Virus record (IMG/VR): IMGVR_UViG_2700989400_000004
Coordinates: 1-64,000 of that record
Length of the DNA stretch: 64,000 nucleotides
Reading direction: 5' to 3' (one strand)
Origin: a virus
Lineage: Duplodnaviria > Heunggongvirae > Uroviricota > Caudoviricetes
Shown here: one piece after another, positions 1 to 44,134 of the stretch
Position numbering within the stretch: the first letter of the stretch is position 1
Layout of the letters: every line of letters begins with the position of its first letter
Translations under genes and position numbers: made by a program
The notes under the pieces: model-generated
The model's input: the letters and a program-made list of their open reading frames with translations, nothing else
Database searches by the model: none
Told to the model about the DNA's origin: nothing

Positions 1-201
1 TCATCGTCTCGGTTTGTCCGGTTTCCGCCACTGATACGGCCTCACAACATCATGCTGGTGGCGTTCCTGTTGCAGCACAACGGAAACAGGCACTGAACAC
101 CTGTTAATTTTGCTTCGTGGCGGCTTGATTCCGGTAATGCTGCGGATCATCTCCAGCAAATCGGCTTCGGTGATGGTCATGGCTTTCCTGTCAGCACTCA
201 T
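1..201 (-). CDS. hypothetical small protein
   Basis: Complete 66-codon ORF with stop at 1-3; internal ATG (MTITEADLL) preceded by GGAAAG; no motif recognised. Confidence 0.25.
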   Translation of the reverse strand: MSADRKAMTITEADLLEMIRSITGIKPPRSKINRCSVPVSVVLQQERHQHDVVRPYQWRKPDKPRR

Positions 202-229
202 ATCACATTAATACGTTCATTACGATGGA

Positions 230-814
230 TTATCCCGTTTTAGTGACTAACCATTGCAGAATAACGATAATTAAATATGTTAATGTACCAGTTCCAAGAA
301 GTATTAATAATTGATAACAACGTAGAGCAATATTACTAATCGATTTTTGCATTACGATATTCACTAACTCAGCCACACACTCTTTAGATCTTATCGATAG
401 AATGCTTGGAACTTCTCTATTTATTGATAATATTTCACATTGAATAGACTCACCTGGTGCGAGGCTTTCAAGCCTGATAATATAGCGACCATCCTTTTCA
501 ATATTTTCTTCAACATGGTGGACAGGCCAAAAATTAATATGCATTGGCTTATAGTTAAAAACCAATGATATATTAGTAGCACTTTCTCGCCCTTCATTAA
601 CAAGAATAATCGATCGTGTATACACCAATTGTGAGTTAGATATTACTTCACCACTGGTGTCCCGTAATGGTTCATGAACAAGAAAAGTAAATCCATGCTG
701 ATAACCATAGGATAACTTTGCCTTGCTTTTAAATCTGTTATTCAGCATCCATGTAAAAATAGCAATAAAAAAAGAAAATATTTCTTTCCCATAAAGACTA
801 AAAAAACTCATCAC
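230..814 (-). CDS. hypothetical membrane protein with hydrophobic segments at both termini
   Basis: 194 aa ORF in markedly AT-rich DNA; hydrophobic N- and C-terminal stretches; no family recognised. Confidence 0.45.
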   Translation of the reverse strand: MMSFFSLYGKEIFSFFIAIFTWMLNNRFKSKAKLSYGYQHGFTFLVHEPLRDTSGEVISNSQLVYTRSIILVNEGRESATNISLVFNYKPMHINFWPVHHVEENIEKDGRYIIRLESLAPGESIQCEILSINREVPSILSIRSKECVAELVNIVMQKSISNIALRCYQLLILLGTGTLTYLIIVILQWLVTKTG

Positions 815-929
815 AAACTTCCCTCAGTAACCTGATTCTGTTGTTAAAGTTACCAGCACTATAGTCATTCATTCACATTGCGACAAGAAGGTTACAGCAC
901 GCTCAATCACACCTCAGAAAATCTTAGAG

Positions 930-1146
930 AAGGTTGACACACTTGACACTTTTCCGCGAAAAACCTTAACAAAACTTAGCATTTCTAAGCATGGCAACTT
1001 GACACTTTTCGCGATTTTTTCTGCTTTTTGATGTGGCAAACATGGCGCAAGACCAGTAATGACGGGGCTTACAGCGAGGTTGACACTTTTTCGTGTTCAG
1101 AGTGTAAAGTGTCAACCTTGCAAGCTGCTCAACTTGACACTTTTTG
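930..1146. repeat. cluster of TTGACAC(TTTT) repeats: five direct copies plus one inverted
   Basis: Direct copies near 933, 943, 999, 1080 and 1134; inverted GTGTCAA at 1110; seen directly in sequence. Confidence 0.6.
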
Positions 1147-1152
1147 CGGCCG

Positions 1153-1695
1153 TTAATGACCTGTTTTCTCCCATTCAGCCAGGGCGTTTAGTCCTGCCTC
1201 GCTCCATGATTCAAGTTCATCAGGATAATCACCTGCAACATAGCAGAGTTCACAGCGCAGCATACGAATTGCCAGCCTGGCATTACCCCGCAAATTGTAT
1301 TGTTCAAAGTAATGCTGTCCTTCATCATCCTCAAGGCAGATAGCACCATCATCAAGAAAGTGTGCTTCCCAGCCTAATTCCCCGGCTGCATCCTGCACAC
1401 ACTGCTTTATGTCATCGTCCGTTACTGGCGCAGGAATTTTACCGTCTCTGTCCCTGACAGCTTTCCAGAACTCGCCCCACGTCATTTCCAGCGTTCTCTC
1501 AGGCCACATTTCAGAAACAGTGTCTTTTCCCTGTGATGGTGGGCTGTTTCGCCACTCTGTCGCCTCCATATCAATTTTTTTACCCGACATGACCACCTCG
1601 CCTTTCTCGATCCAGTCGTAAACTGTCTGGCGGCTTACACCTTTGTATTTGGCGTATTCGGCTTTACTCATCAACATGTGGCTCACCTCATGCAT
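1153..1695 (-). CDS. helix-turn-helix DNA-binding protein (Nu1/excisionase-like N-terminal HTH)
   Basis: N-terminal MSKAEYAKYKGVSRQTVYDWIEKGEV resembles winged-HTH of small-terminase/excisionase-type proteins; start uncertain. Confidence 0.45.
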   Translation of the reverse strand: MHEVSHMLMSKAEYAKYKGVSRQTVYDWIEKGEVVMSGKKIDMEATEWRNSPPSQGKDTVSEMWPERTLEMTWGEFWKAVRDRDGKIPAPVTDDDIKQCVQDAAGELGWEAHFLDDGAICLEDDEGQHYFEQYNLRGNARLAIRMLRCELCYVAGDYPDELESWSEAGLNALAEWEKTGH

Positions 1696-1776
1696 ATACG
1701 ATAAACATTCACTTCATGCGAAAAAGGAATTCGTTGTGGGTATGGCGGAGAGGGGCAATCACCGCCCCTTGCGGAT

Positions 1777-2049
1777 TCAGTTACGCCAGGATGGCTGGCT
1801 AAGCGTGGTTTTCATTACATCGTTGACGACCTGTTTTACGATTTCTGTGTTGGCAGTCGTGCTTTCAACATCAACAAAACCATAATCGCCAATTTCCACC
1901 GTCAGAGATTCCAGTTTTTTCCCCAGCGCGTCTGGCAACTCTCCACTGAACCGGTGCTGAAGATTTTCCACCAGCAACGCCCTGAATGCCTCGCTGTTCT
2001 CTTTTTTCTGCCATAGCTGGCGTTTATCCACTCTGATATTTAATTTCAC
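1777..2049 (-). CDS. hypothetical acidic protein
   Basis: 90 aa ORF; start overlaps stop of upstream small gene (ATGA). Confidence 0.35.
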   Translation of the reverse strand: MKLNIRVDKRQLWQKKENSEAFRALLVENLQHRFSGELPDALGKKLESLTVEIGDYGFVDVESTTANTEIVKQVVNDVMKTTLSQPSWRN

Positions 2050-2213
2050 AGTCTCACCTCTTTAAGTGCCTTATCCATCAGTTGCCGGGCTATAACATGA
2101 ATTGACGGTGCCACACCAAGCACAGATTTCTGACGCTCTTCGTCCTGGATGCGTTGCAGGGCTTCGATCTGCCTCCGGGAAAGTAAAACTGGCTTTACTC
2201 CGTGATTTTTCAT
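2046..2213 (-). CDS. small ribbon-helix-helix-like protein
   Basis: 55 aa from internal ATG; beta-strand then two helices pattern (KPVLLS / RRQIEALQRI / APSIHVIARQLM). Confidence 0.35.
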   Translation of the reverse strand: MKNHGVKPVLLSRRQIEALQRIQDEERQKSVLGVAPSIHVIARQLMDKALKEVRL

Positions 2214-2302
2214 GATGATCCCTTCTGAATGACAATAATTGCAATTATTGCAATTATTGAAATGATACCAGAGACAATTGCAATAAATGAAACGAAAAGC
2301 AT
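2210..2302 (-). CDS. small hydrophobic peptide (30 aa)
   Basis: MLFVSFIAIVSGIISIIAIIAIIVIQKGSS; AAGGTTGG Shine-Dalgarno upstream; stop overlaps next start. Confidence 0.25.
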   Translation of the reverse strand: MLFVSFIAIVSGIISIIAIIAIIVIQKGSS

Positions 2303-2491
2303 CAATAAACCAACCTTCGGCACTGAATGCTCTGATTTTTCTGCAAAGGTATGGCAGATGTTGGTGCATGCAAACATAAAGGCAATAGCAGAAGAAGCTG
2401 CGGGGAGTGAAAAGGGGAAGTTTTTATAAATACACGATTGTCGCCTCACTGCAGGTTAACAGCCACAAGCTCCATGATAATAACTTGTTAA

Positions 2492-2815
2492 TTATTTCAT
2501 CAGATTTTTCATTATTTGCGCGATTGAGTACACAAGCAAAAACTCGGCAGCCGCAAGAGTATAAAAAACATAAATTCGCTTAGCCCACCGACGATGAAAG
2601 AACTCCTCAGCATGGCCGGATGTTCGAGATACAAGCCATGCACCTACTGCACACAGAGCAGGTGCAATGAGCACAGTTATAAACCAGATTGTGATGCCCA
2701 TCCCATGCCTACTGATAATAGCCATTGGTATTGCAAAAATGAATGTTAGAGCAGCATTAGCTAATAGAATATCTTTTAAAGTATTTTCAATTAGTTTTGC
2801 TAGATTATCTTTCAT
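2492..2815 (-). CDS. hypothetical multi-pass membrane protein
   Basis: 107 aa, several hydrophobic helices, AT-rich. Confidence 0.4.
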   Translation of the reverse strand: MKDNLAKLIENTLKDILLANAALTFIFAIPMAIISRHGMGITIWFITVLIAPALCAVGAWLVSRTSGHAEEFFHRRWAKRIYVFYTLAAAEFLLVYSIAQIMKNLMK

Positions 2816-2844
2816 CTAATCCCCCACGTTGAACATTAATATAT

Positions 2845-2865
2845 AAAAGCCCCTTACTAAGGGGC
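2845..2865 (-). terminator. rho-independent terminator after lipoprotein gene
   Basis: GCCCCTTA/TAAGGGGC stem followed by T-tract on minus strand. Confidence 0.55.
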
Positions 2866-2879
2866 TTTGCACGGATTGT

Positions 2880-4022
2880 TTAAAGGGAACTTTTTTTCGC
2901 CCCTTCAATTTCTGCCTGACAAATTTCGTCATTTGTAAATGAGTACTGCAGATAGACATATCCCTGAGTGGAATTGTTCGCTCTGGCCTCAATAGATATA
3001 GTATCAATATTGTTTTTTAATGGTATTTCTTTTGTTCCCTTCCATGTGGCAGATAAGAAGCGTTCTTTTTTGTTTAGCCCCCTCATCCAGTCCTGAGGAT
3101 CTTTCCAAATTGAACCAGCCAGCAAAAAGTCTGTAGTATCAGCCTTTCCATACAGAGAACTTAAAGAATTACTCAATTCTTCAAACTTTGATTTAAGAGC
3201 CAATCCATAGCTATCAGTATCAATATTTTTTCCTAAAGCCCGTATTTGACATAAACCAGCTTTCGGGGAGATCAGCAAACCATACATTTCAAAATCTGCG
3301 TTTTGCTTCGGTAATTTATCAGAAGTATACAGATTCACACTGTCTGGTAGTGGCTTGAGCTTAGCACCGATCATATCTTCGATGTTTTTCTGTGTAAGAC
3401 CGGCTTCTAAGCCAAACGGACCATCCGCTGGCGGGAGTAAAGGAAGTTGCTCTTGGGAATTTTTGGCTGTTACTTCCGTTTCAGTACTGTTTTTTGCGTC
3501 ATTAGCTTGTACTGATGCCAGCTTAACTTCAGCGAGGCCATACTTGGCTGTGAGGTACTTTTGCTGCAACATTGCCATGGTCTGCTCTTCAGTGGCAACA
3601 GTAGATAATTTTAGTACCTTTATCAGACCACCACTATACTGACGAGCATCAGCTTTGGCTTCGTTGATTTTTGCATCTAAGCTGTCAATTTCAGTTTTAA
3701 TTGAAGCCGCAAGCTCAGGATCAGGTTTTACTCCAGATACAACAACATCAATTTTGGCACCTGATTCAATAGCATTAATACGCTGTTCCAAAAGCGCTTT
3801 ATTAGTTCCTAATATTTCCAGTCTTGCTGTTGTCAGATTTTTTATCAACCCACCAGAAAACTGCTGGTCAACTTCCTTAGCTGCTGATATTTCACCTTCC
3901 GTTTGCGACAGTTCAGCTTTAAGAGCAGCTACTTCCTGTTTCTGTTCTGGAGTTAACTCTTCTGGCCCACATCCGGTTAACATTACTATACCGACTAATG
4001 TTGCAATTAAAGTTTTATTCAT
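2880..4022 (-). CDS. lipoprotein with repeated QxxSGGLIK motif
   Basis: Signal peptide plus lipobox LTGC; 380 aa; two copies of (Q/R)Q(F/Y)SGGLIK. Confidence 0.6.
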   Translation of the reverse strand: MNKTLIATLVGIVMLTGCGPEELTPEQKQEVAALKAELSQTEGEISAAKEVDQQFSGGLIKNLTTARLEILGTNKALLEQRINAIESGAKIDVVVSGVKPDPELAASIKTEIDSLDAKINEAKADARQYSGGLIKVLKLSTVATEEQTMAMLQQKYLTAKYGLAEVKLASVQANDAKNSTETEVTAKNSQEQLPLLPPADGPFGLEAGLTQKNIEDMIGAKLKPLPDSVNLYTSDKLPKQNADFEMYGLLISPKAGLCQIRALGKNIDTDSYGLALKSKFEELSNSLSSLYGKADTTDFLLAGSIWKDPQDWMRGLNKKERFLSATWKGTKEIPLKNNIDTISIEARANNSTQGYVYLQYSFTNDEICQAEIEGAKKSSL

Positions 4023-4156
4023 ATCCCTATTCCAAATGAAAATATTCAGATTAATCTTATCAGGAACCCAGATGCAATTGAATATTCATCTGCTCAGCAA
4101 CGTAGTAGATTTCCTCAGAAAGCATCAACAAAAAACCAAGAGAATCCCATCCTCTG

Positions 4157-4444
4157 TTACTGACTACAATTGTTCTTTTTTTGGTATTTCCTGAATGCCT
4201 CACCATTGGGCTGATGTAATCCCATCCCGGCATGTGCCCGGCTGATGGTTTCGCGCATCTCCCCGAAATTATCCTGCCTTGCTGGTGGGCGTGCTGCCTT
4301 GTGGATACATTCCGCGCGACGTTTTGCCGCCTGTTCCCGTGCCTTGTCATCATTCGCCAGCATGATGACCTCAGCCCACCGCGCCGCCGCTCTCCGGTAC
4401 AGTCCACGCGCTTCCAGTGCTTCCGCTTTGCTGTCGTGAATCAT
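4157..4444 (-). CDS. PerC family transcriptional activator
   Basis: 95 aa; N-terminal MIHDSKAEALEARGLYRRAAARWAEV typical of PerC-like proteins of P4-like elements. Confidence 0.6.
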   Translation of the reverse strand: MIHDSKAEALEARGLYRRAAARWAEVIMLANDDKAREQAAKRRAECIHKAARPPARQDNFGEMRETISRAHAGMGLHQPNGEAFRKYQKKNNCSQ

Positions 4445-4998
4445 GCGCCTGTTTTCTCCCTGGCTGCCCGGCGCTGGCGTTTGCGCTTCTCATTCAGCGC
4501 CATCAGCCGCATTTCTGCCTCGTTCTGTTTCTGTGGTGTCACCTCGCCGCACGGCTGGCCTTTCAGGTCATAGCGCACCCCACCAGCCATTAAGGCGCGG
4601 TAATAGCGCGGACACTGCGCATAAGATGCCAGCGTCGCACGTAATGCCCCTGGACCGAATGCCAGCCCCCTGACGGCGATATCCTGCATCAGGTCGTCGA
4701 ATATCCCCACCTTAAGTGGCTTCGGTGCTTCCCGGCTGAATAATTCAGGCCACAACTCAGTGAGACGGTTAACGCGCCTGCGGTTTTTGCGCTGGCGTTT
4801 GGTCATATGCCGCCACGGTGTCGCCCCTGTGGGCTTCTGCTGCGCTTTCTGGTTACCGGGCATCACTTTATGTGCCGATGTGGTTTTATCCTGCTTCTGT
4901 GCCGCCTGCGTCGTTTTCTGCGGCGTGCCGTAAATACCTTTCGGTTTTCTGTTAATGGTCAGTTTTGTCATGCTCTGCCCCATCATTGTTGCCGTCAT
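4441..4998 (-). CDS. ProQ/FinO-domain RNA chaperone-like protein
   Basis: LKVGIFDDL, RATLASYAQCPRYYRAL and RYDLKGQPCGEV align with the ProQ N-terminal domain (LKIGIFQDL, RSALRLYTSSWRYLYGV, RVDLDGNPCGEL). Confidence 0.6.
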   Translation of the reverse strand: MTATMMGQSMTKLTINRKPKGIYGTPQKTTQAAQKQDKTTSAHKVMPGNQKAQQKPTGATPWRHMTKRQRKNRRRVNRLTELWPELFSREAPKPLKVGIFDDLMQDIAVRGLAFGPGALRATLASYAQCPRYYRALMAGGVRYDLKGQPCGEVTPQKQNEAEMRLMALNEKRKRQRRAAREKTGA

Positions 4999-5149
4999 AT
5001 CGGCACGTAAAAATAAAACAGTCTCATTGTCAGTTACCTGTCAGCTTTTATGCCTTTTCCGGGTGGGATGGCTGACAGTAGTCAATCGTAATACAAAATT
5101 TGAACAACCTTTTTTTCTGTACTCTATAAGGCGTAAAAAAACATTTTTT

Positions 5150-5430
5150 ACCGGGATATCGGGATATAAACAAAAAAACCCCATTTATTTCATAGCGTTA
5201 TGTGATTTTTCATATCCCGCCATATCCCGGTAAGTTTTTTTTTGCTTATGCATCAATAAGATATTGCGGGATACATTCCGGGATACGGTTATTTTGTTTG
5301 TTTTACAACCACTCGTAAACCTAAATACCGGGATACGGCGGGATACAGCGGGATACGACAACAACACATAAATAACTGATATTTATGCAATATATTTTTC
5401 ATATCCCGATATCCCGCATATCCCGCGATT
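5150..5430. repeat. iteron cluster, about 12 copies of CGGGATA in both orientations (putative satellite replication origin)
   Basis: AT-rich 300 bp immediately 3' of the primase gene; direct and inverted CGGGATA/TATCCCG groups near 5152, 5210, 5265, 5330 and 5400. Confidence 0.6.
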
Positions 5431-5457
5431 TTTGACCCTCTGCGAGCGTAGGTTGTG

Positions 5458-7590
5458 CTATTCGTCTTCTGCCTGATCAATCAGCACGATAAATCGCTGC
5501 TGTGTTCCGTTAATCTTCACTGTTTTCGATGTCCAGCGACCAGGTTCTGCACAAACCAGCATTCCGGCTTCTTCCAGCGCCTGACACCCAAAGTTCCTGG
5601 ATATACCGCATAAAATTTCGCTATCAAACACTGACGGGATAATGTGATATTCGGGTTTTCCATCCTCACGCTTACCGCTGACAAGATAGCCTGCAAGATT
5701 GCTTATACGGGATGCATAGTGGTTATCCATATCCCCATTGCTTTTCCCGTAGGTATAAGGCTGAAAACGACTCAGGGCATGGCGCTGAATAAAGTCACGG
5801 GCGCGACTGATGACCTGATATTTTTCCCGGTTTTCCAGCCCGAAATCCTGTAGCCAGTCATCAAAAGCCCGTTGCGTTGCTTCCCGGCATTCTTCAGCTG
5901 TCCAGCCAGTAATTGCGGTGGCAAGCTCTCCGGCTGCATCCAGCATGGCGAATCGCGATGCCACTCGCCTTACCTGTGACGAGGCATTTTCAGGCAGATT
6001 TCCCAGCCAGGCATTTTCTTTATCTGAAGTGGTGTTGATAGCCAGCTCCTTGTGAGCGGATAACCAGCGCACCCACTCACGTCCCGCAGCGCCACAATAA
6101 TTTGATGAAAGTCGCTTTATGGCCCTGGCATGTTGATCACCATCGTCATAACCGTTAAACACCGTTGTATCGGTAAAGGGAATGCTTAGCAGTCGCACCA
6201 GTTGCCCTGCCTTTGGGGCAATTCCCCCTTTTAACAGGAAGGTTTCAAAATCTTCTTCTCCGGTGCTTAGTGCCGCTATTTTCCAGCGCATTACCGCACG
6301 ATTACCGCCGTCCTTGCGCCCCTGAATCCTGCCCACACCGTTAAACAGGCTGTAGGCGGATTGCGCAATGTCATTAACCCTTCCTCCCTGACCAATTTCA
6401 TCAATAGGGATAAAACCGTCATTACGTGCAGCTGCTTCCACTGTCAGCCCGTGCCGGGTGGCATCCCACGAGAGTTTAAGCATTTCAGGGTCGCCATAAA
6501 GGCTGGTGGCGGCCTCCACAGTCGTGGTTTTCCCCGCTGACGACTGCGCGAAAAGATGAATACCAAAACAACTACCACCCACAAGGGAATTTAGCGGGGC
6601 TGCCAGCCCGACCAGCACCCCAAGCATCATTGAGTGATTGCCACGCATCAGAGAAGCAACATTATTTCGCCATTCATGCACCGTGCCCCTGACAATATAG
6701 CCTTTGATGGCGGCAGATCCGCCGCAGAATGCTACGGGACGGTCAGGCACACCAATCACCTCGCCATCAGGCATAACATAGGCTCCACAATGCCAACCTG
6801 CTGTTGATGTGACCTCCCACACCGTGCGATCTCCATGACGTTGCAGGTATTCCGCCAGTTTGTTCAGTAAATGGGCACTGGTAGTGATTGCAACTCCCCG
6901 CCCACGTAATCGCGCCCATCCTGCGGGCATACCGATTTCATTGCGCGGCATCGCTTCGTAAATAATTTTTTGTGTCCCTTCCGGGATCATTTCAATGATC
7001 AGATACGCTTCCCTTCCGTCGTTACCAATACCTGCCGTGCGCATCCGGTCACTCAGCCAGGTTTCTTTATAATTCATCTCCTCTGCCCTGGTGTTGGGGA
7101 TTGGCTCGATATACCAGAGCGCCCCGTCTTTTTCGGTAATATGCGGTTTCATGGGGTCTGTTTTACCGGGTGATCCACCAGCTATTCCGATTCCTTCAGG
7201 AATGGTTTCCCCGCGCTCTGTCTGTTCGCGGATCCGTTGCAGGTAGTCGCGCCAGTTCTCCGGCTCCCGGTCGGTGATGCCTTTGTATAATTTCGCATCC
7301 TGTACGCCAGCCAGCGCCAGCTTTTCAGCGATAGCATTGATCTGGATTGGCTCTATCTCCCCCGCGATATAAACACGCGCAAAGCGGCGCTCATCGTCGA
7401 TAATGCGGATATTAGCCAGATCTGCCAGTTGCGTTGGCCCCAGGTAAACAGGTGGCACGTTATCGCCGTGTTTTCGTCCTTCGCTTTCAATCCAGTGTTG
7501 AGCATGGGCGTAAGCATCCGTCCCGGCAAAAATGATTACCTCGGTGAATTTATCCTTTGGCTGATATTTTAAATTCGGTGCGTTTTTCAC
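5458..7590 (-). CDS. primase/helicase replication protein (Toprim plus NTPase, P4 alpha-like)
   Basis: 710 aa; Walker A-like AQSSAGKTT; domain order typical of satellite primase-helicases. Confidence 0.8.
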   Translation of the reverse strand: MKNAPNLKYQPKDKFTEVIIFAGTDAYAHAQHWIESEGRKHGDNVPPVYLGPTQLADLANIRIIDDERRFARVYIAGEIEPIQINAIAEKLALAGVQDAKLYKGITDREPENWRDYLQRIREQTERGETIPEGIGIAGGSPGKTDPMKPHITEKDGALWYIEPIPNTRAEEMNYKETWLSDRMRTAGIGNDGREAYLIIEMIPEGTQKIIYEAMPRNEIGMPAGWARLRGRGVAITTSAHLLNKLAEYLQRHGDRTVWEVTSTAGWHCGAYVMPDGEVIGVPDRPVAFCGGSAAIKGYIVRGTVHEWRNNVASLMRGNHSMMLGVLVGLAAPLNSLVGGSCFGIHLFAQSSAGKTTTVEAATSLYGDPEMLKLSWDATRHGLTVEAAARNDGFIPIDEIGQGGRVNDIAQSAYSLFNGVGRIQGRKDGGNRAVMRWKIAALSTGEEDFETFLLKGGIAPKAGQLVRLLSIPFTDTTVFNGYDDGDQHARAIKRLSSNYCGAAGREWVRWLSAHKELAINTTSDKENAWLGNLPENASSQVRRVASRFAMLDAAGELATAITGWTAEECREATQRAFDDWLQDFGLENREKYQVISRARDFIQRHALSRFQPYTYGKSNGDMDNHYASRISNLAGYLVSGKREDGKPEYHIIPSVFDSEILCGISRNFGCQALEEAGMLVCAEPGRWTSKTVKINGTQQRFIVLIDQAEDE

Positions 7591-7877
7591 TTCTTACCTC
7601 CCGCAACCAACATTGCCCGGATTTTTTTAATATTCGAGGCTGCACGTCTTGCCACCGCCAATTGTTTGTTTTCCACCAGAATAAAATCACGCTCAAACTG
7701 ACGGCGCGGCATTACGCAGTCATATTCGTAAGCCTCACGGCGGTAGGTGATATTGCCTGGCGTAACGTGACGAATAACCACTCGTCCCCCACGTCTGGTG
7801 TCGCGGTAAATATCGCCAGAGCGAATTGCAGACCGAGAGAGGCCGCTGGCAGTAAAGCCAGAATTTTTCTTTTTCAT
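7587..7877 (-). CDS. hypothetical basic protein
   Basis: 96 aa ORF in operon with 4-nt overlaps. Confidence 0.4.
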   Translation of the reverse strand: MKKKNSGFTASGLSRSAIRSGDIYRDTRRGGRVVIRHVTPGNITYRREAYEYDCVMPRRQFERDFILVENKQLAVARRAASNIKKIRAMLVAGGKK

Positions 7878-7881
7878 GGTT

Positions 7882-8082
7882 TTATTTTCCTGTCAGCAGT
7901 TCCGGTTTTATTCCTGCACGAATACATAGTTCAGAAAAGCCTTCTACCGTACTTACAATTTCATTATTTCGCAGTCGGCATTGTGATTTCACTTTCCCTT
8001 TATCCAGGTAAACCAGTACGCGCCCGGTGAAATCATCTGGCACATTCAGGGTAATTGTCATTGTTGCTGGCTGATTACCCAT
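7882..8082 (-). CDS. hypothetical protein, one copy of FTGR...FSEL domain
   Basis: 66 aa; paralogous to the repeated domain in 8075..8440. Confidence 0.4.
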   Translation of the reverse strand: MGNQPATMTITLNVPDDFTGRVLVYLDKGKVKSQCRLRNNEIVSTVEGFSELCIRAGIKPELLTGK

Positions 8083-8440
8083 GACTTCCCCCCTGAATGA
8101 TCCGGTAATCGCAACGGGTCAGCAGTTCGCTAAATTCCGGCAGTGTTCCGAAACAGCAATCATCACGCAGCCGTTCGCGGGATACCTCGACGCCGTTTTC
8201 GTAGTGACTCACCATGCGTCCGGTAAAATGCAGATCATCATCGTGATGGTTCGTTAACGGCTTAATAAGTCGCGCACGTTCTGCCAGTTCCAGCAATGCT
8301 TCAACGCTTCCGGCAATTGCACCATCCGGCAGGTGATAATTACTTACCACGCGTCCATTCTCCACGTTAACCAGTAGCTGCTCGGTGAATTTCTCACGAA
8401 ACTGAATGCTGTTAAGGTCAGAAATTGACAGGTTATGCAT
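8075..8440 (-). CDS. hypothetical protein with two tandem FTGR...FSEL-type repeats
   Basis: 121 aa; internal duplication visible by eye. Confidence 0.45.
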   Translation of the reverse strand: MHNLSISDLNSIQFREKFTEQLLVNVENGRVVSNYHLPDGAIAGSVEALLELAERARLIKPLTNHHDDDLHFTGRMVSHYENGVEVSRERLRDDCCFGTLPEFSELLTRCDYRIIQGGSHG

Positions 8441-8798
8441 GGTGCACCTCCTGGCGAATACGGGCAGCGAATACCATCACGCAGCCATCAGGAGATTGCT
8501 GACGCGCTTCCTGTTCGCTGGTGGCCTCGATGTGAATTACGCGCGGTTGTGCTGTGCTCAGGGCGATAAAACGCCAGATAAAATTGTTCTCGCATTTCTG
8601 AATAAACAGCGTGTTTTCTTCGCGCCCTTTCCATGTTGCCGAGATATAGCCCATGTCATTGAGCATCTCGCAGGCATCAACCAGCGTATCAGCGGCTACG
8701 TGTACAGTGTTTTTACCGTCAGCTATGCAATCACGGTGCACCGCCAGGAAGGTGTATATAAATTTAGGGTGAGTTTGGGTATGCTGTGTTCCAGCCAT
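8433..8798 (-). CDS. hypothetical protein, first gene of leftward operon
   Basis: ATG at 8798 with GAGGT Shine-Dalgarno; 121 aa; same frame remains open upstream to 10019. Confidence 0.5.
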   Translation of the reverse strand: MAGTQHTQTHPKFIYTFLAVHRDCIADGKNTVHVAADTLVDACEMLNDMGYISATWKGREENTLFIQKCENNFIWRFIALSTAQPRVIHIEATSEQEARQQSPDGCVMVFAARIRQEVHHA

Positions 8799-8863
8799 AA
8801 TCGTTACCTCGTTTAACGGTTTGGTTAGACGCCCTGCATGTGTGCCACCACTGCGGGGCGTTG

Positions 8864-8898
8864 CTGTATATACACCACAATCATTAGTGTATATACAG
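8864..8898. promoter_or_regulatory. operator-like perfect inverted repeat CTGTATATACAC-N11-GTGTATATACAG
   Basis: 12-bp perfect arms seen directly; lies between divergent 8433..8798 (-) and 8989..9294 (+). Confidence 0.6.
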
Positions 8899-8988
8899 AT
8901 TAGATTTAAGTGTGCTACAGTGTCAAGTGTTTTATCAACACACCTTTTGGTGTAATGTGTACACACCTCAAAATAACCGGACATTCTG

Positions 8989-9294
8989 ATGGCAACAGGA
9001 AACATCAACAGCAGATCGCAAATGAAAAATATCCGCTTCCCCCATGATGTAATCGAGGAAATGGAAAATTCGAAAACGGAAGGGGAAACAATAGCCGCTT
9101 TCGTGATTACAGCCGTTCGCGGTGAAATCGCCCGCCGCCAGGCAGAAGGAAGCGGAGAAAATCCCCTGGTTTCTTCGCTCGATGCACTGGCGCAGGTGGA
9201 AAAAATCGGTGTCAAAGCAGCCGAGGAGATCGGGCAACTCGTCACCGTCGCGCGTGAAGAACTCCAGCGGCGCAAGGCCAAAGAACAGGAGTAA
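8989..9294 (+). CDS. putative Arc/Mnt-like ribbon-helix-helix regulator
   Basis: KNIRFPHDVIEEMEN...AAFVITAVRGEIARR resembles the Arc repressor fold pattern; conflicts with a long open frame on the opposite strand. Confidence 0.35.
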   Translation: MATGNINSRSQMKNIRFPHDVIEEMENSKTEGETIAAFVITAVRGEIARRQAEGSGENPLVSSLDALAQVEKIGVKAAEEIGQLVTVAREELQRRKAKEQE

Positions 9295-10011
9295 CCATCA
9301 CCAGCGCCGTGGTGTGAGGAACTACGGTGCATCGTTTTACAGGGCAGCGCCATGACCAACAAAGAATCAACCAATACACCATCACCGGCACGGAAAAGAC
9401 AGCGCAGAAAGATAGCGTACGAGCATGAGTCAGACAGATTCGCGCCCTGTGCGTTTATCCTTGAGAAATTCCTTAAAGAGTACAGGCGCACAAAAATGGG
9501 GTCGCATACCTGGAAAACATCGCGGCATGGCGATGTTAAAGAGCAGGAATAGCCCACCAGCAAGCCAGCATATTCACCATAATGACCCTCAGTTAAACCT
9601 AGAGTCATTGGTGCAAAGCTGACACATTGCCCACCAGCCGCAAATGTGGCATTGTTGGTGATGCGTTCAAGTATGTAGCTTTTCCACTGGCGGCTCTCTG
9701 CGGTCGCCTTTGTTTTATCCAGAACGAAATCAGACATCAGATTGATCAGCACCTGGCGACCTGACAAAATCGCATCAGTCGCGCCACCAGCAGTATTTTT
9801 TGCTTTCCGGACAGCTTGGCCAACTGCATTTTGCAGCAAAATATTCTGCATTTCTGGCTTACTGTGATAACAGTGATCAGCGCCTTCACTCTGTACGACC
9901 ACAACGCTATAATCTGCCTCGTAGACAGTAAGCAATATGGCGCAGTAAGCGACTTGTTCACAAAGGCGCTCCGGCAACGGGGCGCTTTTTCTTTTTGTAA
10001 CGGTCAGAGCA

Positions 10012-10812
10012 TTACACATGGCTGTTTTCCTCCATGCGACGGGCTAACCAACGCTGCGAAAGACGAATTAATTCAGCTTTCCGCTGGTGGTAGTCCTGGC
10101 CTAACTCAATCAGCGTGATATTGCTCTGCTCAAGGTAAGAAAGATGCTCAAGCTGCAACGTGCTCATGTGGTCGCGTGGTTCGCCTGTGATGCCGTTCGC
10201 CTGCGCCCACTGTTTTGCAGTCATGCCACCCAGCACGATACGCGCCAGCATATTGGCTTCCGTGGTGTAGTGGTGCTGTAGAGTGTTTTTACCCAGCTCA
10301 GCCCGGTACGCCTCCAGCGCGGCACACATTGGCTTAAAGTAGCTGGCAACTGTGATACGGGCTTTCAGTTCCCGGCGTAACACTGCGGAACGCACTGGCG
10401 CTACCTTGTGTAGCTCCTCCTCGCATTTGATAAAGTACTGACGAACGGCGCGGCCCTGTTCGGTGCGTTCGACCATCGCCAGTTCTTTCGCCATGTTCAC
10501 TGTGATGATGTACTCAAGAGCTGTTTGCTGGCGAGATTTTGCGCTCACCGGATCGGGTCGGCTCAAATATTCAACAACCTCATAATCCACGCCTTCCGTG
10601 AACCCGTATTCTTCAATGCGCCCCTTGATCCACGAACGGAAAACGCGCCCTACACCTAACGCCTTATGTAACGCTCTGGCGCTAACAATAGTGGTTTCAC
10701 GCCCACCAATAACGCCGGAAATAACCGGAATAATTTCAGCGAAATTTTGCAGATTCTGTTTTTCAGGCCGAACGAAGCCCCGCCCCTGTACAGGCGTATA
10801 TCCAGTATTCAT
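10012..10812 (-). CDS. phage antirepressor-like protein (Bro-N/AntA-type N-terminus)
   Basis: N-terminal IIPVISGVIGGRETTIVSARALHKALGV...EYGFTEGVDYEV. Confidence 0.6.
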   Translation of the reverse strand: MNTGYTPVQGRGFVRPEKQNLQNFAEIIPVISGVIGGRETTIVSARALHKALGVGRVFRSWIKGRIEEYGFTEGVDYEVVEYLSRPDPVSAKSRQQTALEYIITVNMAKELAMVERTEQGRAVRQYFIKCEEELHKVAPVRSAVLRRELKARITVASYFKPMCAALEAYRAELGKNTLQHHYTTEANMLARIVLGGMTAKQWAQANGITGEPRDHMSTLQLEHLSYLEQSNITLIELGQDYHQRKAELIRLSQRWLARRMEENSHV

Positions 10813-10864
10813 GGTTAAATCTCTGTATTAGTGGATGGGAGGCGGCTGTGTGCCGCCAGCCTGA

Positions 10865-11053
10865 TTAGTGAACTGCCTCGCGGCTGTCCTTCCATGCCAG
10901 AACTTCGGATAAAGACCAGCCAACGGAACGACCACCGAGTTTACGCCGTGATGGGAATTGTCCGGCTTTTTCCAGGCGGTAGCGGCATGAACGGCTCAGG
11001 CCTGTAAGTTGCTGACATTCTTTTTCACGTATAAAGCGATCTGTGCTTAACAC
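10865..11053 (-). CDS. alpA: AlpA family transcriptional regulator
   Basis: 62 aa; LTGLSRSCRYRLEKAGQFPSRRKLGGRSVGWSLSEVLAW is the AlpA-type HTH signature. Confidence 0.75.
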   Translation of the reverse strand: MLSTDRFIREKECQQLTGLSRSCRYRLEKAGQFPSRRKLGGRSVGWSLSEVLAWKDSREAVH

Positions 11054-11416
11054 AATTCCCCCTTTGTTGTTTCTTAAAGAGTCATTGGGTGGATTATTGG
11101 GTTGGGTCGGATTGTGTCAGGGTGTTTATGGAATGGCAAACACTGGTGGCGGTCGTTTTACAGAAGTGGGGTAATGAGAATAAAAACTTTTTTAATTCAT
11201 TGTGATGCAGTAGCGTAAAATTCTGTTTTTACGCCCTTTTTTACATGCTTTTAAGAGTGATTCGCCAATGTACAAAAAGCCAGTAAAACGACTGAAAATC
11301 AACTTTTTAGGGTGTCGGTCAGATGATAATCAAGTTTGTTCCAGATTGTTCGCCGTTGTTCGTCGTGGTGTCTCGTTGTTTCACGTTGTGTCCGTTCTGA
11401 AAAATCGCGAAAAAAA

Positions 11417-12667
11417 TTATATTTCTCTGGCTATTGGCAGTGTGGTTACGTTTTCGTGAGCACCTGCCAGTATCTCTAATCGCTCTGTCCACATATCCAG
11501 CGCGTTACGTTTCGCATCAATATAGCGGGAGTGGTTATAGACTCGTTGCATCCCTGGCATCTGGTGGGCGGTAAGTTGCTCGACAATATGCGGATCCACG
11601 CCTAAATCGTTCAGCATCGTGGTAAACGTGCGCCGTATATCGTGCAGGGACCAGTGAGGATGGTTTAATTTTTTGTGCGTAAATCTGCCGTATTGTGACA
11701 CGCTGGCTTCCTGTTTCAGTTCTCCGAGTAATAACCCTGTGTGCCTGTTCTGCTCCACCAGTTGCGTGACGAACGGCAAAATGCTTTCCGGTATTGGCCT
11801 GAATATGGCGACCTTCGTTTTGCTGTGTTCTTTCGGTACCGTCCAGAGCATTTCCTTAAAATCCCACTCCCTGATCTCCGACAGCCTCAGTTCTCCAGTT
11901 CGGCAGCCAAACACAATCAGGAGGCGGATTAGCGCGCTGTAGTAGGGCGGGAATATTTTTTTATCCAGCGCCTGTAATAATTCGCCCAGTTCTTTGTTAC
12001 TAAGCACGCGTTCGCTTATGCCTGGCTTTTTGCCAACGTCCACCACGTTGAGATCATCCAGAACGTTACTGACTGCGTAGCGACGTTTTCGGCAGAACTT
12101 AAGCGCCTGTTTACACGCCTGCATCATGTGACCAGACGTTACAGGGGATTTTTTGCGTATCCGGTCAAAACAGGCCAGCCAGTGACGTAACTCGCATTTA
12201 TCCAGTGGCATATTGCCAATATGCTGTATGACGTGATTATTCAGGCGGCTGTTCAGGGAGACGTAATCGACACGGTTTTCCTTTACGTGCATTTCCAGCC
12301 AGTAGCTGATCGCATCACCCACCGTTACCGGCTTTAGTGCTTCCTGTATGGAGTAATTAAGCTCATGGCGTGGATTTTTTCCTTCTGCCAGCCATGCGCG
12401 ACACTGTGCCGCTTTTTCCCTGGCTGCTTTCAGGCTCAGATCAGGATAATTTCCCAGCTTCAGGCGTTCCGGTGATACCAGGCGTCCAGCTCCTGCCCTG
12501 TAGGTGAAATACCAGGTTAACAAGCCGCTGGTGGAATGCCTGACGCTCAGGTTTCCACCGTCATTAAGAAATGTGGTTTTTGGGGCTGGTGTGCCGTTGA
12601 TTTTTCTTAGCTGTGTATCGCTCAGTTTGTTAAGTGCTCTGCTCATAATTTTGAATCCGGTCATCAC
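11417..12667 (-). CDS. int: tyrosine-type site-specific integrase (P4-like)
   Basis: 416 aa; N-terminal arm-binding-like domain and C-terminal catalytic region (HxxR...Y); start uncertain. Confidence 0.85.
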   Translation of the reverse strand: MMTGFKIMSRALNKLSDTQLRKINGTPAPKTTFLNDGGNLSVRHSTSGLLTWYFTYRAGAGRLVSPERLKLGNYPDLSLKAAREKAAQCRAWLAEGKNPRHELNYSIQEALKPVTVGDAISYWLEMHVKENRVDYVSLNSRLNNHVIQHIGNMPLDKCELRHWLACFDRIRKKSPVTSGHMMQACKQALKFCRKRRYAVSNVLDDLNVVDVGKKPGISERVLSNKELGELLQALDKKIFPPYYSALIRLLIVFGCRTGELRLSEIREWDFKEMLWTVPKEHSKTKVAIFRPIPESILPFVTQLVEQNRHTGLLLGELKQEASVSQYGRFTHKKLNHPHWSLHDIRRTFTTMLNDLGVDPHIVEQLTAHQMPGMQRVYNHSRYIDAKRNALDMWTERLEILAGAHENVTTLPIAREI

Positions 12668-12668
12668 A

Positions 12669-12692
12669 ATTAACTACACCATTAACTACACC
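12669..12692. repeat. tandem 12-bp direct repeat ATTAACTACACC x2 next to int start
   Basis: Seen directly; candidate arm-type or regulatory site. Confidence 0.5.
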
Positions 12693-12910
12693 GATCATTG
12701 CACAAGGGGGTACAACGTGGAACAAATTGGAACAAGAAAAATTGCAATGAGTTTAAAAATCAAAAACATAATGAACAACGTGGCACATTATGAAACAGCA
12801 AAAAACACTAATTTATAAAATCACGATATTAATAATGTAACTTATATTTTCGTGAAATCTGTCACTGAAGAAAATTGGCAACTAAAGGTTAAAACCGTTA
12901 TAACACAGTC

Positions 12911-13005
12911 ACCGGCGCAGAGGAGACAATGCCGGATTTAAGACGCGGATGCACTGCTGTGTGTACTGTAGAGTCTGGCGGATGTCGACAGACTCTATTT
13001 TTTTA
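12911..13005 (+). ncRNA. mcaS: McaS (IsrA) small regulatory RNA
   Basis: Matches recalled McaS sequence ACCGGCGCAGAGGAGACAAUGCCGGAUUUAAGACGCGGAUG..., ends in a GAGTCTG...CAGACTC hairpin plus U-tract, convergent with abgR as in K-12. Confidence 0.7.
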
Positions 13006-13012
13006 TGCAGTT

Positions 13013-13921
13013 TTAACTTTGCAGATAGCCGCATTCTCGCCGGAATTGCGTGATTAATGACGCGGTCAGTGGTGTCTGGCGACTATCACGCCGCTGAATC
13101 AAATAATAGGCCGCTTTCGGTAAAATTTCGCTAACCGGCAACATCACCAGCCCCTGTCCGTGCAAGGGATCGCAGCCCATTTCTTCAGGCAGTATGCTGA
13201 GAAAATCGCTTTTTGCCACCAGACTGATACAGGCTGAGAACGTCTCGCAGACTACACCGACCTGTGGCGTTTGCGCCTGATCGTCAAGCAATTCACTCAA
13301 CTGTTTGTAGTAGCTGCCGTGTGGCGTCGGCATTGTCCAGCTGTAATCCAGTAACTGTTTGATCGAACGGGCACCAATGGCGGGGTGTCCCGGGCGGCAA
13401 AAGATCGCGAATTGCTTTTCCAGTAATTTCTCAAAAGTAAATTCGTGGTCGTACGGTCCCTGATAATAGGTATTGATGGTGAAATCCAATTCTCCCTGAC
13501 GCAATTCATTAATCATCGACACCAGTTGCCCTTCCATAATGCGTACTTTTACCTGCGGATGCTGCTGATGAAAACGAGATATGACAGCTGGCATCAGACT
13601 GCGGGAAATACTGGCCCCCATGCCGATATTAATCTGCCCTGCCAGTTGCCCTTGTCGTTGGCGAATATCCTCTTGGGCTGCGCGCAGTTCTTCAAGAATA
13701 AGACTGGCGTGCTGATAAAAACTTTCACCGGCATCAGTTAACGTCACGCCTTTACTACGGCGAAAAAAGAGTTGCGCCGCTAATCCTTCTTCCAGCTCCT
13801 GAATAGATTTACTCAGTGCCGGTTGCGACATATTCAACATTCGGCTCGCTCCGCGAATGCTGCCCTGACGAGCCACTTCAACAAAAGCACGAATTTGATG
13901 AATTTTTACCTGAAAAGCCAT
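13013..13921 (-). CDS. abgR: LysR-family regulator AbgR
   Basis: 302 aa LysR-type HTH plus substrate domain; divergent from abgAB-abgT. Confidence 0.9.
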   Translation of the reverse strand: MAFQVKIHQIRAFVEVARQGSIRGASRMLNMSQPALSKSIQELEEGLAAQLFFRRSKGVTLTDAGESFYQHASLILEELRAAQEDIRQRQGQLAGQINIGMGASISRSLMPAVISRFHQQHPQVKVRIMEGQLVSMINELRQGELDFTINTYYQGPYDHEFTFEKLLEKQFAIFCRPGHPAIGARSIKQLLDYSWTMPTPHGSYYKQLSELLDDQAQTPQVGVVCETFSACISLVAKSDFLSILPEEMGCDPLHGQGLVMLPVSEILPKAAYYLIQRRDSRQTPLTASLITQFRRECGYLQS

Positions 13922-14096
13922 GACGCCACCGATAACCGTTATTTATCAGACCAAAGAAACTGGCATCTACTTTAATGCAGATGATTGTGTCAGGGTAATT
14001 TATGAACGGTTAAAACTGTGAAAAATCAGTTAGTGATAAGTAAAAACTATCGCTACGTGAACCGGGTCACACTTTTTACTGATGACGGGAAAGGTT

Positions 14097-15407
14097 ATGG
14101 AGTCTTTGAATCAATTTGTTAATTCGCTTGCCCCAAAATTATCGCACTGGCGACGTGATTTTCATCACTATGCAGAGTCTGGCTGGGTGGAATTCCGCAC
14201 TGCCACCCTTGTTGCGGAAGAATTGCAGCAGCTCGGCTATTCACTGGCGCTGGGCCGCGAAGTAGTTAATGAAAGTAGCCGGATGGGACTACCTGATGAA
14301 CTCACTCTACAACGCGAATTCGAGCGCGCTCGTCAACAGGGTGCGCTAGCACAATGGATTGCGGTTTTTGAAGGTGGTTTCACTGGTATCGTCGCCACCC
14401 TGGATACCGGTCGCCCCGGTCCGGTGATGGCTTTCCGTGTCGATATGGACGCGCTGGATCTCAGTGAAGAGCAGGATGTCAGCCATCGCCCCTACCGCGA
14501 CGGTTTTGCGTCATGTAACGCCGGAATGATGCATGCCTGTGGTCATGATGGACATACCGCCATTGGGCTTGGGCTGGCGCATACCCTTAAACAATTCGAG
14601 TCCGGACTACATGGCGTCATCAAACTGATTTTTCAGCCTGCAGAGGAAGGTACGCGTGGCGCGCGGGCGATGGTCGATGCAGGTGTCGTAGATGATGTTG
14701 ATTATTTTACTGCCGTGCACATTGGCACTGGCGTACCTGCGGGCACCGTGGTGTGCGGCAGTGATAATTTTATGGCAACCACCAAATTTGACGCGCACTT
14801 CACCGGTACCGCCGCTCACGCAGGCGCAAAACCAGAAGACGGTCACAATGCCTTGTTGGCGGCAGCACAAGCCACTCTTGCACTGCATGCAATCGCCCCG
14901 CACAGCGAAGGAGCTTCCAGAGTAAACGTGGGCGTTATGCAGGCAGGAAGCGGTCGTAACGTTGTTCCTGCCTCGGCGTTGCTGAAAGTGGAAACACGCG
15001 GGGCCAGCGACGTCATTAATCAATATGTTTTTGACCGTGCACAACAAGCGATTCAGGGCGCAGCAACCATGTATGGTGTCGGCGTTGAAACTCGTCTGAT
15101 GGGTGCAGCTACCGCCAGTTCTCCTTCGCCGCAATGGGTCGCATGGTTGCAAAGTCAGGCGGCTCAGGTCGCGGGGGTCAATCAGGCCATTGAACGTGTT
15201 GAAGCGCCTGCGGGTTCCGAAGATGCCACATTAATGATGGCCCGCGTGCAGCAACATCAAGGGCAAGCCTCCTACGTGGTGTTTGGCACACAGCTGGCGG
15301 CAGGTCATCACAACGAAAAATTCGATTTTGACGAGCAGGTTCTCGCTATTGCCGTCGAAACGCTGGCGCGCACCGCGCTCAATTTTCCCTGGACGCGAGG
15401 TATCTGA
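14097..15407 (+). CDS. abgA: p-aminobenzoyl-glutamate hydrolase subunit A (M20 peptidase)
   Basis: 436 aa from MESLNQ start; M20 family metal-binding motifs. Confidence 0.9.
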   Translation: MESLNQFVNSLAPKLSHWRRDFHHYAESGWVEFRTATLVAEELQQLGYSLALGREVVNESSRMGLPDELTLQREFERARQQGALAQWIAVFEGGFTGIVATLDTGRPGPVMAFRVDMDALDLSEEQDVSHRPYRDGFASCNAGMMHACGHDGHTAIGLGLAHTLKQFESGLHGVIKLIFQPAEEGTRGARAMVDAGVVDDVDYFTAVHIGTGVPAGTVVCGSDNFMATTKFDAHFTGTAAHAGAKPEDGHNALLAAAQATLALHAIAPHSEGASRVNVGVMQAGSGRNVVPASALLKVETRGASDVINQYVFDRAQQAIQGAATMYGVGVETRLMGAATASSPSPQWVAWLQSQAAQVAGVNQAIERVEAPAGSEDATLMMARVQQHQGQASYVVFGTQLAAGHHNEKFDFDEQVLAIAVETLARTALNFPWTRGI

Positions 15408-16852: not shown

Positions 16853-16888
16853 CAACAACAACGCAAACACAACAACCGAGGAATGCCC

Positions 16889-43652: not shown

Positions 43653-44134
43653 ACCTCATTTTCTACTTCCTGGACGATGCGGGCGATCTCTTCTTTCGTG
43701 ATTTCAATCTGGACGGGCGCTTCTTCCTTGTTGCCGACGATCTCCTGTGTGACGCGTTCGCCGTATTTGCGCGACTGAAGTTTTGCCAGTAGCCACTTGC
43801 GCGTTTCAATCATTAGTTGGTGGCGTCGCAACTGATCTTTATCTGCGTTCTCTGCTGCATCAGCCAGATCGATGATTTCATCAGCCAATACCTCGAAGCC
43901 GATCTCCTTCGCGCGCGCGTACATGATCGAGAATTCCGGTACATCCCTAAACCATTTCAGGATTGTTGAACGGGTAGGCATACCAGGCATTTTCGAAATT
44001 TTATTAATACTCTGACCATCCGCCACCAGTTCACATATTTCTAACGCTTTTTCTTCTGTATAACCATGCGGACGGCCCACCCTTTTTGCGGCTGGCCTTT
44101 TATCGTCAGCTTTTGCCTTTTTAGTGCGGACCAT
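43649..44134 (-). CDS. terminase small subunit (HTH)
   Basis: 161 aa; N-terminal HTH; 4-nt overlap with large subunit. Confidence 0.6.
   Translation of the reverse strand: MVRTKKAKADDKRPAAKRVGRPHGYTEEKALEICELVADGQSINKISKMPGMPTRSTILKWFRDVPEFSIMYARAKEIGFEVLADEIIDLADAAENADKDQLRRHQLMIETRKWLLAKLQSRKYGERVTQEIVGNKEEAPVQIEITKEEIARIVQEVENEV

Follow-up and report, generated by a model that had tools for sequence, protein, structure and literature searches.

A probable Gram-negative phage-inducible chromosomal island between smrA and the small RNA gene mcaS of Escherichia coli

Introduction

Gram-negative phage-inducible chromosomal islands, or PICIs, are recognized by a common set of traits: an integrase, AlpA and replication genes in that order, an attachment (att) site of their own, no structural or lysis genes, a length of 12-15 kb, an origin made of iterons, unidirectional transcription, and the accessory genes rgdR/perC (PMC6092414). 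Their functional traits are induction that depends on a helper phage, specific packaging, high-frequency transfer, and interference. The lysR-smrA site is among the eight PICI attC sites reported in E. coli (PMC6092414), and is occupied by EcCIEC2733.1, a PICI of 10.5 kb with the att core ACATTATTAATATCGTGA (Fillol-Salom 2018, Table S1; PMC6092414). EcCIEC2733.1 is also the source of RppC, a protein whose structure has been solved (PDB 6HN7; PMC6739421). Here, we analyze an element found at the same chromosomal site in a stretch of 64,000 nucleotides, corresponding to positions 1 to 64,000 of the IMG/VR virus record IMGVR_UViG_2700989400_000004 and hereafter called the window. The original prediction, made from the sequence without database searches, had taken positions 1-12700 for a P4-like or PICI-like satellite inserted beside the small RNA (sRNA) gene mcaS. 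We conclude, with a probability of about 0.82, that the element is an intact Gram-negative PICI of ~13.25 kb that uses a non-tRNA site upstream of mcaS and would be packaged into the particles of a helper phage.

Results

Boundaries and attachment site of the element

The left part of the window (1-18332) is 99.8% identical to NZ_CP076282, the record of E. coli strain 442/2; the differences are 26 mismatches and a single 5-bp indel in the alpA-int spacer. Past 18332 the two sequences depart from each other, since the window continues into a prophage and 442/2 has none. We used the 442/2 record (locus L001) for the sequence that precedes the first position of the window. In K-12, smrA is directly beside mcaS with no insert, and we searched for the att sites by aligning this uninterrupted smrA-mcaS-abgR locus to 442/2 and then reading the junctions base by base. 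The original prediction had proposed both this comparison and a search for the other end of the element to the left of the window; the former gave the att repeats and the latter the missing attL. The alignment is composed of two blocks whose K-12 coordinates overlap by 20 bp, and the junctions carry a 16-bp direct repeat, TCACGATATT(A/T)ATAAT. The attR core, TCACGATATTAATAAT, is located at 12821-12836 and is identical to the attB of K-12. It covers positions -90 to -75 relative to the 5' end of mcaS, a flanking host gene outside the element (12911-13006, plus strand; Rfam RF00115, 118 bits for a gathering score of 42). The attL core, TCACGATATTTATAAT, identified by the comparison with K-12, is located beyond the left end of the window, ~411-426 bp from position 1 (11574-11589 in L001), and the end of smrA is ~560 bp left of position 1. 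Measured from core to core in 442/2, the element between smrA and mcaS is 13,252 bp long, within the size range of PICIs. Both ends are thus farther out than first proposed. The original prediction was right in placing the element next to mcaS, where K-12 has smrA, in seeing no tRNA near int (ARAGORN finds no tRNA or tmRNA across the entire 64-kb window), and in expecting the attachment site in or near the sRNA locus.

The core had been published before. The sequence ACATTATTAATATCGTGA of EcCIEC2733.1 is the reverse complement of the repeat identified here, 2 nt longer, and the gene called lysR is abgR. Hence, the smrA-mcaS site is a known PICI attC. As for the neighboring sRNA, McaS is activated by cAMP-CRP (PMC4152358), and a CRP-like palindrome, GTGAAATCTGTCAC, is found at 12852-12865, on the mcaS side of attR. 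Since this site and all the downstream DNA stay on that side, the promoter of the sRNA, from -90 downstream, appears to be unchanged by the insertion.

The integrase gene (11417-12646, minus strand) encodes a tyrosine integrase of 409 aa with the Pfam domains Arm-DNA-bind_3, Phage_int_M, and Phage_integrase, in agreement with the RefSeq annotation of 442/2. A 69-nt direct repeat is present inside both ends of the element, at 12668-12736 between int and attR and at 11655-11723 of L001 on the attL side. The two copies are 78% identical, and their first 26 nt, AATTAACTACACCATTAACTACACCG, are the same at both ends. The repeat consists of a tandem AACTACACC-ATT-AACTACACC with conserved flanking bases, which is what one expects of putative arm-type sites for an arm-binding integrase.

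Backbone genes and replication origin

We searched the open reading frames (ORFs) of the element with Pfam, PHROGs, and NCBIfam. All backbone ORFs are full length and on the minus strand, with int, alpA, and the primase gene in the order expected from PICIs. The AlpA regulator (62 aa, 10865-11053; PF05930, E=3e-18) is followed by an AntA/AntB antirepressor-family protein (10012-10812; PF08346, E=2e-23), an Icd-like gene that is described below, a 121-aa protein matching phrog_340 (p121, 8075-8440), and, directly after it, the gene of a 66-aa phrog_340 paralogue of p121 (7882-8082). Next come a 96-aa homologue of RgdR with a DUF4222 domain (7587-7877; PF13973) and a DUF927 primase/helicase of 710 aa, the predicted replication initiator (5458-7590; PF06048, E=2e-40; phrog_1139 DNA primase, E=2e-84). 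A ProQ/FinO-domain protein (4441-4971; PF04352, E=3e-23) and a PerC-family regulator (4157-4444; PF06069, E=1e-31) lie farther left. The minus strand also has several ORFs with no annotation. The genes named in the original prediction, from int and alpA to the antirepressor-like gene, the primase/helicase with its iterons, ProQ/FinO, and PerC, are therefore all present in the profile searches and repeat counts. Their description as a co-oriented train is correct for the backbone, but not for a YlcI/YnfO-family gene (8989-9294) and a small ORF (9352-9552), which are on the plus strand.

The predicted replication origin (5145-5430) starts directly after the primase stop codon and is made of (C/T)GGGATA(T/C) iterons in both orientations. 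Of the 22 copies of the 7-mer TATCCCG/CGGGATA in the window, 12 are found within 274 bp (5152-5425). The iterons form two clusters, at 5145-5233/5260-5357 and at 5400-5430 with AT-rich DNA between them, as in the origins of Gram-negative PICIs, where two sets of iterons flank an AT-rich region beside pri-rep (PMC6092414, legend of Fig. 2).

The accessory genes are also those of PICIs, as perC stands together with an rgdR gene. RgdR is the protein ECs1581 of 99 aa, with the motif RGD at residues 20-22 (PMC3378721), and corresponds to the DUF4222 protein that the O157 element encodes. The homologue studied here is 51% identical to this protein and has SGD in the place of RGD. In the ED1a variant of RgdR, six differences, including R20C in the RGD motif, go with a failure to activate type III secretion (PMC3378721).

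Search for packaging devices

None of the ORFs matches a capsid, portal, tail, large terminase, holin, or lysin family in the three libraries, as expected from a PICI, which carries no structural or lysis genes. The genes typical of capsid-forming PICIs (cf-PICIs), i.e., TerS, TerL, HNH, portal, protease, major capsid, and connectors, were not found on the element. The TerS-like signal is limited to a weak N-terminal helix-turn-helix (HTH) match (phrog_57, E=1e-5 over 39 residues). We then searched the full length of the element, with the portion that precedes the window, for the cohesive-end sites (cos) lambda cosN, lambda cosQ, and P2 cos, and obtained only chance-level matches with at least 3 mismatches. 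There is no match to lambda cosN within 2 mismatches, those with 3 being at chance level, and the search for P2/P4 cos with up to 5 mismatches gave a single chance-level match. A phmmer search against PDB with the 174-aa protein encoded near the left end of the window and with the DUF1441 protein of a related element (L003, see below) found no Rpp homologue. Fold searches with the 174-aa protein matched only a generic winged-HTH domain, and its C-terminal domain, similar to a double-stranded RNA-binding domain (dsRBD), is unlike the helical domain of RppC. Hence, neither of the two parts of an Rpp-type redirection of packaging (an Rpp homologue and a lambda-like cosN/cosQ) was found.

Distribution of the element and of its site

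Among 5426 complete E. coli genomes, ~3830 have an intact and empty smrA-mcaS spacer, and 85 records have a split one. The five occupied examples that we inspected (the present element in the window and 442/2, L003, L004, L017, and L018, which is a remnant) are all PICI-type elements, and none is a prophage. In 76 genomes we found an integrase with at least 95% identity to that of the present element, and the three copies inspected (L003, L004, and L017) are all at smrA-mcaS. These elements have the same integration module and represent three variants of the backbone: L003 carries DUF1441 and SSB together with a gene for a protease/capsid fusion; L004 encodes a RepA helicase and, as cargo, a lytic transglycosylase; L017 resembles the element studied here in a shorter form. 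Copies that are 99.5% identical occur in strains from a human (Brazil) and a yak. The phage collection gave no match to the element, and the 72,556 plasmids searched gave no full-length match, only partial ones of 81-86%. The original prediction could have failed in two ways: the element might have been a degraded remnant lacking a second att site, or the locus a conserved non-mobile island. The presence of a second att copy, the matching arm repeats at both ends, and a site that is empty in most genomes argue against both.

A different arrangement of the spacer is seen in ~1456 complete genomes (UTI89-type), which match only its mcaS-proximal 62%, at ~88% identity. In these, an AraC-family gene replaces the smrA side.

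Interpretation and alternative explanations

We observe two att copies, arm sites, intact ORFs, the architecture of the origin, homology to PICIs, and the presence or absence of the element across the population with swapping of modules. Helper dependence, induction by AlpA, and packaging we infer by analogy with EcCICFT073, EcCIEDL933, and EcCIMP1. In the scheme that we propose, the arm-binding tyrosine integrase would have recombined an attP core of 16-18 bp with the identical sequence in the smrA-mcaS spacer. A helper phage would switch on alpA, and AlpA would in turn drive the leftward operon (antA, icd, the rgdR-like gene, and the primase gene) as well as excision. The DUF927 primase/helicase would then fire the adjacent iteron origin, and the replicated DNA would be packaged into helper-derived particles. 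In the validated EcCIMP1 and EcCIEDL933 systems, alpA is required for helper-dependent induction; hence, the step of AlpA induction is very probably common to these PICIs and the present element.

Several points weigh against this interpretation. SatelliteFinder defines PICIs by five components (int, a regulator, pri-rep, a capsid-morphogenesis gene, and terS), with five in Type A and four in Type B, and sets Type C aside as ambiguous (PMC10085698). Judged from this published definition, the present element has three of the five (int, AlpA, and pri-rep) and would be an ambiguous Type C. Our searches of the element also found no lambda or P2 cos, no Rpp homologue, and no clear TerS by which its DNA would be packaged. 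The helper, the induction, the excision, and the transfer of this particular element are deduced from its genes, by homology. Finally, attL and attR differ at one of the 16 positions of the core.

Some of the features listed above could be those of a P4-like satellite using a P2-type helper, since the arm-type integrase, AlpA, the Icd-like gene, and the primase beside its origin all have counterparts in P4 relatives, and since a typical P4-like element comes out as a PICI of Type C in SatelliteFinder (PMC10085698). Yet, the psu-delta-sid families match no ORF of the element in Pfam, PHROGs, or NCBIfam, the match to P2/P4 cos is at chance level, PerC, RgdR, and AntA are hallmarks of PICIs, and the att site is listed among those of PICIs. 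We thus regard a P4-like nature as barely credible, and retain only the PICI half of the original prediction. The same genes might also belong to an integrative element whose movement requires no helper phage, such as a mobilizable island or a phage-plasmid-like replicon. The element indeed has its own replicon (primase and iterons), ProQ/FinO proteins belong to a family often linked to plasmid biology, and the assembly of one relative gave a free circle of 10.8 kb. However, relaxase, oriT, partition, and conjugation genes were not found in the library searches of the element, none of the plasmids matches it in full length, and its closest characterized relatives are helper-dependent PICIs, which makes this explanation very improbable.

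One might also have expected a PICI-derived island that has lost its mobility, either domesticated or decaying, and is kept for its cargo. We find this unlikely, because the element has full-length backbone ORFs along with both att cores and both sets of arm sites, and because near-identical copies occur in unrelated hosts and countries. Furthermore, the same core region is found with a different integrase at thrW, which suggests recent movement and recombination. The helper-dependent PICI is therefore the reading that we adopt. As both the family and the att site have been published, the element is a new member of a known group and its novelty is low.

A circular relative and the architecture of attP

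A circular record of 10,790 bp, NZ_CP148328.1 (L019), was deposited as a non-mobilizable plasmid and is a complete PICI of the L003 type, with int, AlpA, Icd, an RgdR-type gene, primase, a protease/capsid fusion, and DUF1441. It closes on an attP with the core ATGATAGTTAT, which is the published core of the cspD-clpS PICI site; hence, it is probably an excised satellite circle. This attP has the same arm sites as the present element at ~95 and ~137 bp on either side of its core. When the ends of the present element are joined, the predicted attP has arm sites at 90 and 144 bp on either side of the core. The same layout of arm sites around different cores suggests that the family keeps one attP architecture and varies the core.

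These arm sites also bear on a published annotation. For EcCIDI14, Table S1 of Fillol-Salom 2018 (PMC6092414) gives the 26-mer CGGTGTAGTTAATGGTGTAGTTAATT as the 'att core'. It is the arm-type site that we find inside both ends of the present element (window 12668-12693; L001 11655-11680) and of L019. Hence, the 26-mer of EcCIDI14 is probably an arm site and not the crossover core.

An opposite-strand unit and the long open frame ending in icd

The Icd-like gene (8433-8798, minus strand; 121 aa; NCBIfam NF033153) has an ATG with a GAGGT Shine-Dalgarno sequence. It forms the end of a much longer minus-strand ORF (8433-10019), which encodes 528 aa from an ATG at 10019 and has the Icd-like domain at its end. 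The stop-free run upstream of the probable icd start (ATG at 8798) has ~415 codons. This frame runs antisense over a YlcI/YnfO-family gene with a ribbon-helix-helix-like N-terminus (8989-9294, plus strand; NCBIfam NF041551, 64 bits, RefSeq, and comparison with YlcI of K-12), and over an intrinsic-terminator-like hairpin with a 12-bp stem and a T-run (9962-9989, plus strand), which closes the plus-strand unit. A small ORF follows the YlcI-like gene (9352-9552, plus strand), and the gap between icd and the YlcI-like gene holds inverted TGTATATACA repeats that are a candidate operator (8865-8897). Altogether, the plus-strand unit (8865-9989) comprises the inverted repeats, the YlcI-like gene, the small ORF, and two terminator-like hairpins, and converges on alpA-antA. 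Gram-negative PICIs have been described as unidirectionally transcribed and as having no known master repressor. Here, all the backbone genes are on the minus strand and the YlcI/YnfO-like gene, with terminator-like hairpins of its own, is on the plus strand. This unit may be a repressor-type switch. We also considered that a cos might have been acquired along with the YlcI-like gene and rejected it, as the ylcI-nohD spacer of DLP12 has a perfect cosN and no similarity to window 8400-9700.

Long open runs before icd are found in related elements as well: those of E. coli have 320, 364, and 401 codons, that of E. ruysiae has 223, and that of Klebsiella has 267. No comparable run is seen in Pectobacterium. 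Databases hold more than 1400 protein clusters of 'Icd-like' proteins of 435-533 aa. To assess this frame, we compared related elements; a wider sampling of the icd region yielded only three loci. The GC content by codon position is flat along the frame. In the comparison, its amino-acid identity (72%) is lower than its nucleotide identity (83%). Outside the overlap with the YlcI-like gene, substitutions at the three codon positions are evenly spread (13/19/23 and 23/16/19), with no third-position bias. The peptide KSAPLPERL, common to the frames of all four elements compared, is the hairpin at 9962-9989 read backwards. Given the flat GC content and the absence of third-position bias, we rejected an ordinary protein gene for the flanking parts of the frame. 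Together with the origin of the conserved peptide, these results make the frame look as if it were kept open with no selection on the protein. In P4 immunity, translation of the leader ORFs kil and eta protects the transcript from termination by Rho. By analogy, one idea is that translation of the long frame could shield the alpA-driven transcript from Rho until icd and the primase gene are reached.

Accessory genes and the distal end

Downstream of perC, the element encodes a 380-aa lipoprotein of no assigned function (p380, 2880-4022, minus strand; lipobox LTG-C18) followed by a 107-aa membrane protein (2492-2815, minus strand). The C-terminal domain of p380 has no recognizable fold match. 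The family of p380 has a constant length (376-380 aa) and occurs in many Enterobacterales; in Enterobacter hormaechei (6001-7140 of L014-L016) a relative is again just 3' of a PICI-type primase.

The last conserved gene of the backbone (1153-1677, minus strand) encodes the 174-aa winged-HTH protein mentioned above, for which fold searches indicate a dsRBD-like C-terminal domain. Beside it, TTGACAC(T)TTT motifs form an array of six, with one in inverted orientation (934-1148). The array holds six of the 12 copies of this motif in the window and is conserved in the sister elements L004, L007, and L008. In Pantoea and Serratia, homologues of the HTH protein with only 46-59% identity likewise end the backbone of a satellite-like element with a primase, and AAAGTGTCAA motifs come after them; the gene and its motifs span 7001-7770 of L020 (Pantoea) and 7001-7675 of L022 (Serratia). 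In each of these 14.5-kb loci all the copies of the 7-mer are in the gap after the gene. Conservation across these genera shows the HTH protein and the adjacent repeat array as a putative protein-plus-site module, which could act in packaging, regulation, or excision. It is conceivable, if rather doubtful, that the HTH protein and the AAAGTGTCAA array are an undescribed module of packaging specificity, analogous to Rpp/TerS plus cosB/pac, perhaps for headful (pac) helpers like the neighboring Sf6-type prophage.

The left end of the window is a variable distal slot (1-811, minus strand), where a 193-aa membrane protein (230-811) and a 59-aa protein (1-180) have no family match in the library searches. 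In E. coli 55989 the same slot holds an AAA ATPase and a DUF4435 protein, a pair that we take to be PARIS-like, and in K99B it holds DUF4747 and another gene. The slots compared extend over 1-931 in the window, 3657-5613 in L007, and 3177-4669 in L008. PADLOC found no defence system in the cargo of the present element, apart from a weak match to the C-terminus of AntA.

The neighboring prophage

The original prediction had placed a full lambdoid prophage 6 kb away, as a possible helper. The prophage is real, but its first position is 18333, 5.5 kb from attR and within the 3' end of abgT, and it continues beyond the right limit of the window. It encodes a tail fibre with an S74 chaperone (18484-20568), a small terminase of the Sf6 type (43649-44134; PF20901), a CI-type repressor (62296-62943), and further tail genes, TerL, portal, a Q antiterminator, and an ERF recombinase. 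By these genes, it is a prophage with lambdoid regulation, a predicted headful-type head, and an Sf6-type pac terminase. The island and the prophage have no shared sequence in blastn and tblastx searches, apart from one 21-nt chance match. Strain 442/2 has the island and no prophage, RM9245 the prophage and no island, and E21845/O/A has both. For comparison, none of the 17 resident prophages of EDL933 is the helper of EcCIEDL933. Residence beside the island is not evidence of a helper relationship, and the idea that this prophage is the helper has no support either way.

Discussion

A PICI at a published PICI site mainly confirms existing knowledge. The locus illustrates how these islands use short non-tRNA intergenic targets and swap integration modules, a 98%-identical core region being found at smrA-mcaS and at thrW. 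The insertion is 75-90 bp upstream of a CRP-controlled sRNA of biofilm and motility, whose upstream context is now the outward-facing end of the integrase gene. The distal slot is variable and has known defence genes in sister elements. As this backbone is devoid of every known packaging device, it raises the question of how it is packaged, for which the HTH-plus-array module is a concrete candidate. If this were true, such a module would let PICIs with no cos, Rpp, TerS, or capsid genes be packaged.

Among the described systems, P4 resembles the element by its arm-type integrase, AlpA-type regulator, icd, and primase with an adjacent origin. The element differs from P4 by having PerC, RgdR, and AntA, and neither a psu-delta-sid operon nor a P2-type cos. 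EcCIEC2733.1, as far as its published description allows the comparison, has the same att core and chromosomal site, and both are Gram-negative PICIs with rgdR. However, it is 10.5 kb long and has RppC for the hijacking of cos-type packaging, whereas the present element is ~13.25 kb long and has no Rpp homologue by sequence and no cosN. The cf-PICI of O157:H7 (EcCIEDL933 / O-island 51 type, at ycfD(roxA)-phoQ) has homologous proteins (98% identity for AlpA, 88% for p121, 74% for Icd, 65% for Int, and 51% for RgdR) and a regulatory region organized in the same way, with a YlcI-like gene on the opposite strand and a long open frame. Unlike the present element, it encodes TerS, TerL, HNH, portal, protease, capsid, and connectors, and uses another integration site.

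EcCIMP1 of E. coli MP1 shares int, AlpA, AntA, DUF4222, an Icd-like gene, the DUF927 primase, and PerC with the present element, with identities of 59% for AntA, 43% for the primase, and 48% for PerC; the DUF4222 gene is upstream of icd in the former and downstream of icd in the latter. Both are devoid of cos, and the helper of EcCIMP1, Kapi1, is a P22-like headful packager. EcCIMP1 is larger (20 kb), uses a tRNA-Thr site and a different integrase, has P22-like ejection-protein genes, and has neither the 174-aa HTH protein nor p380. The element of E. coli 55989 / O104:H4 / K99B is 98% identical in nucleotide sequence to window 932-10812, and all its backbone proteins and most of its cargo proteins are 99-100% identical to those described here. 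It differs by its tRNA-Thr target (thrW) beside proA, by a different integrase and alpA (37% identity), and by an extra gene beside int.

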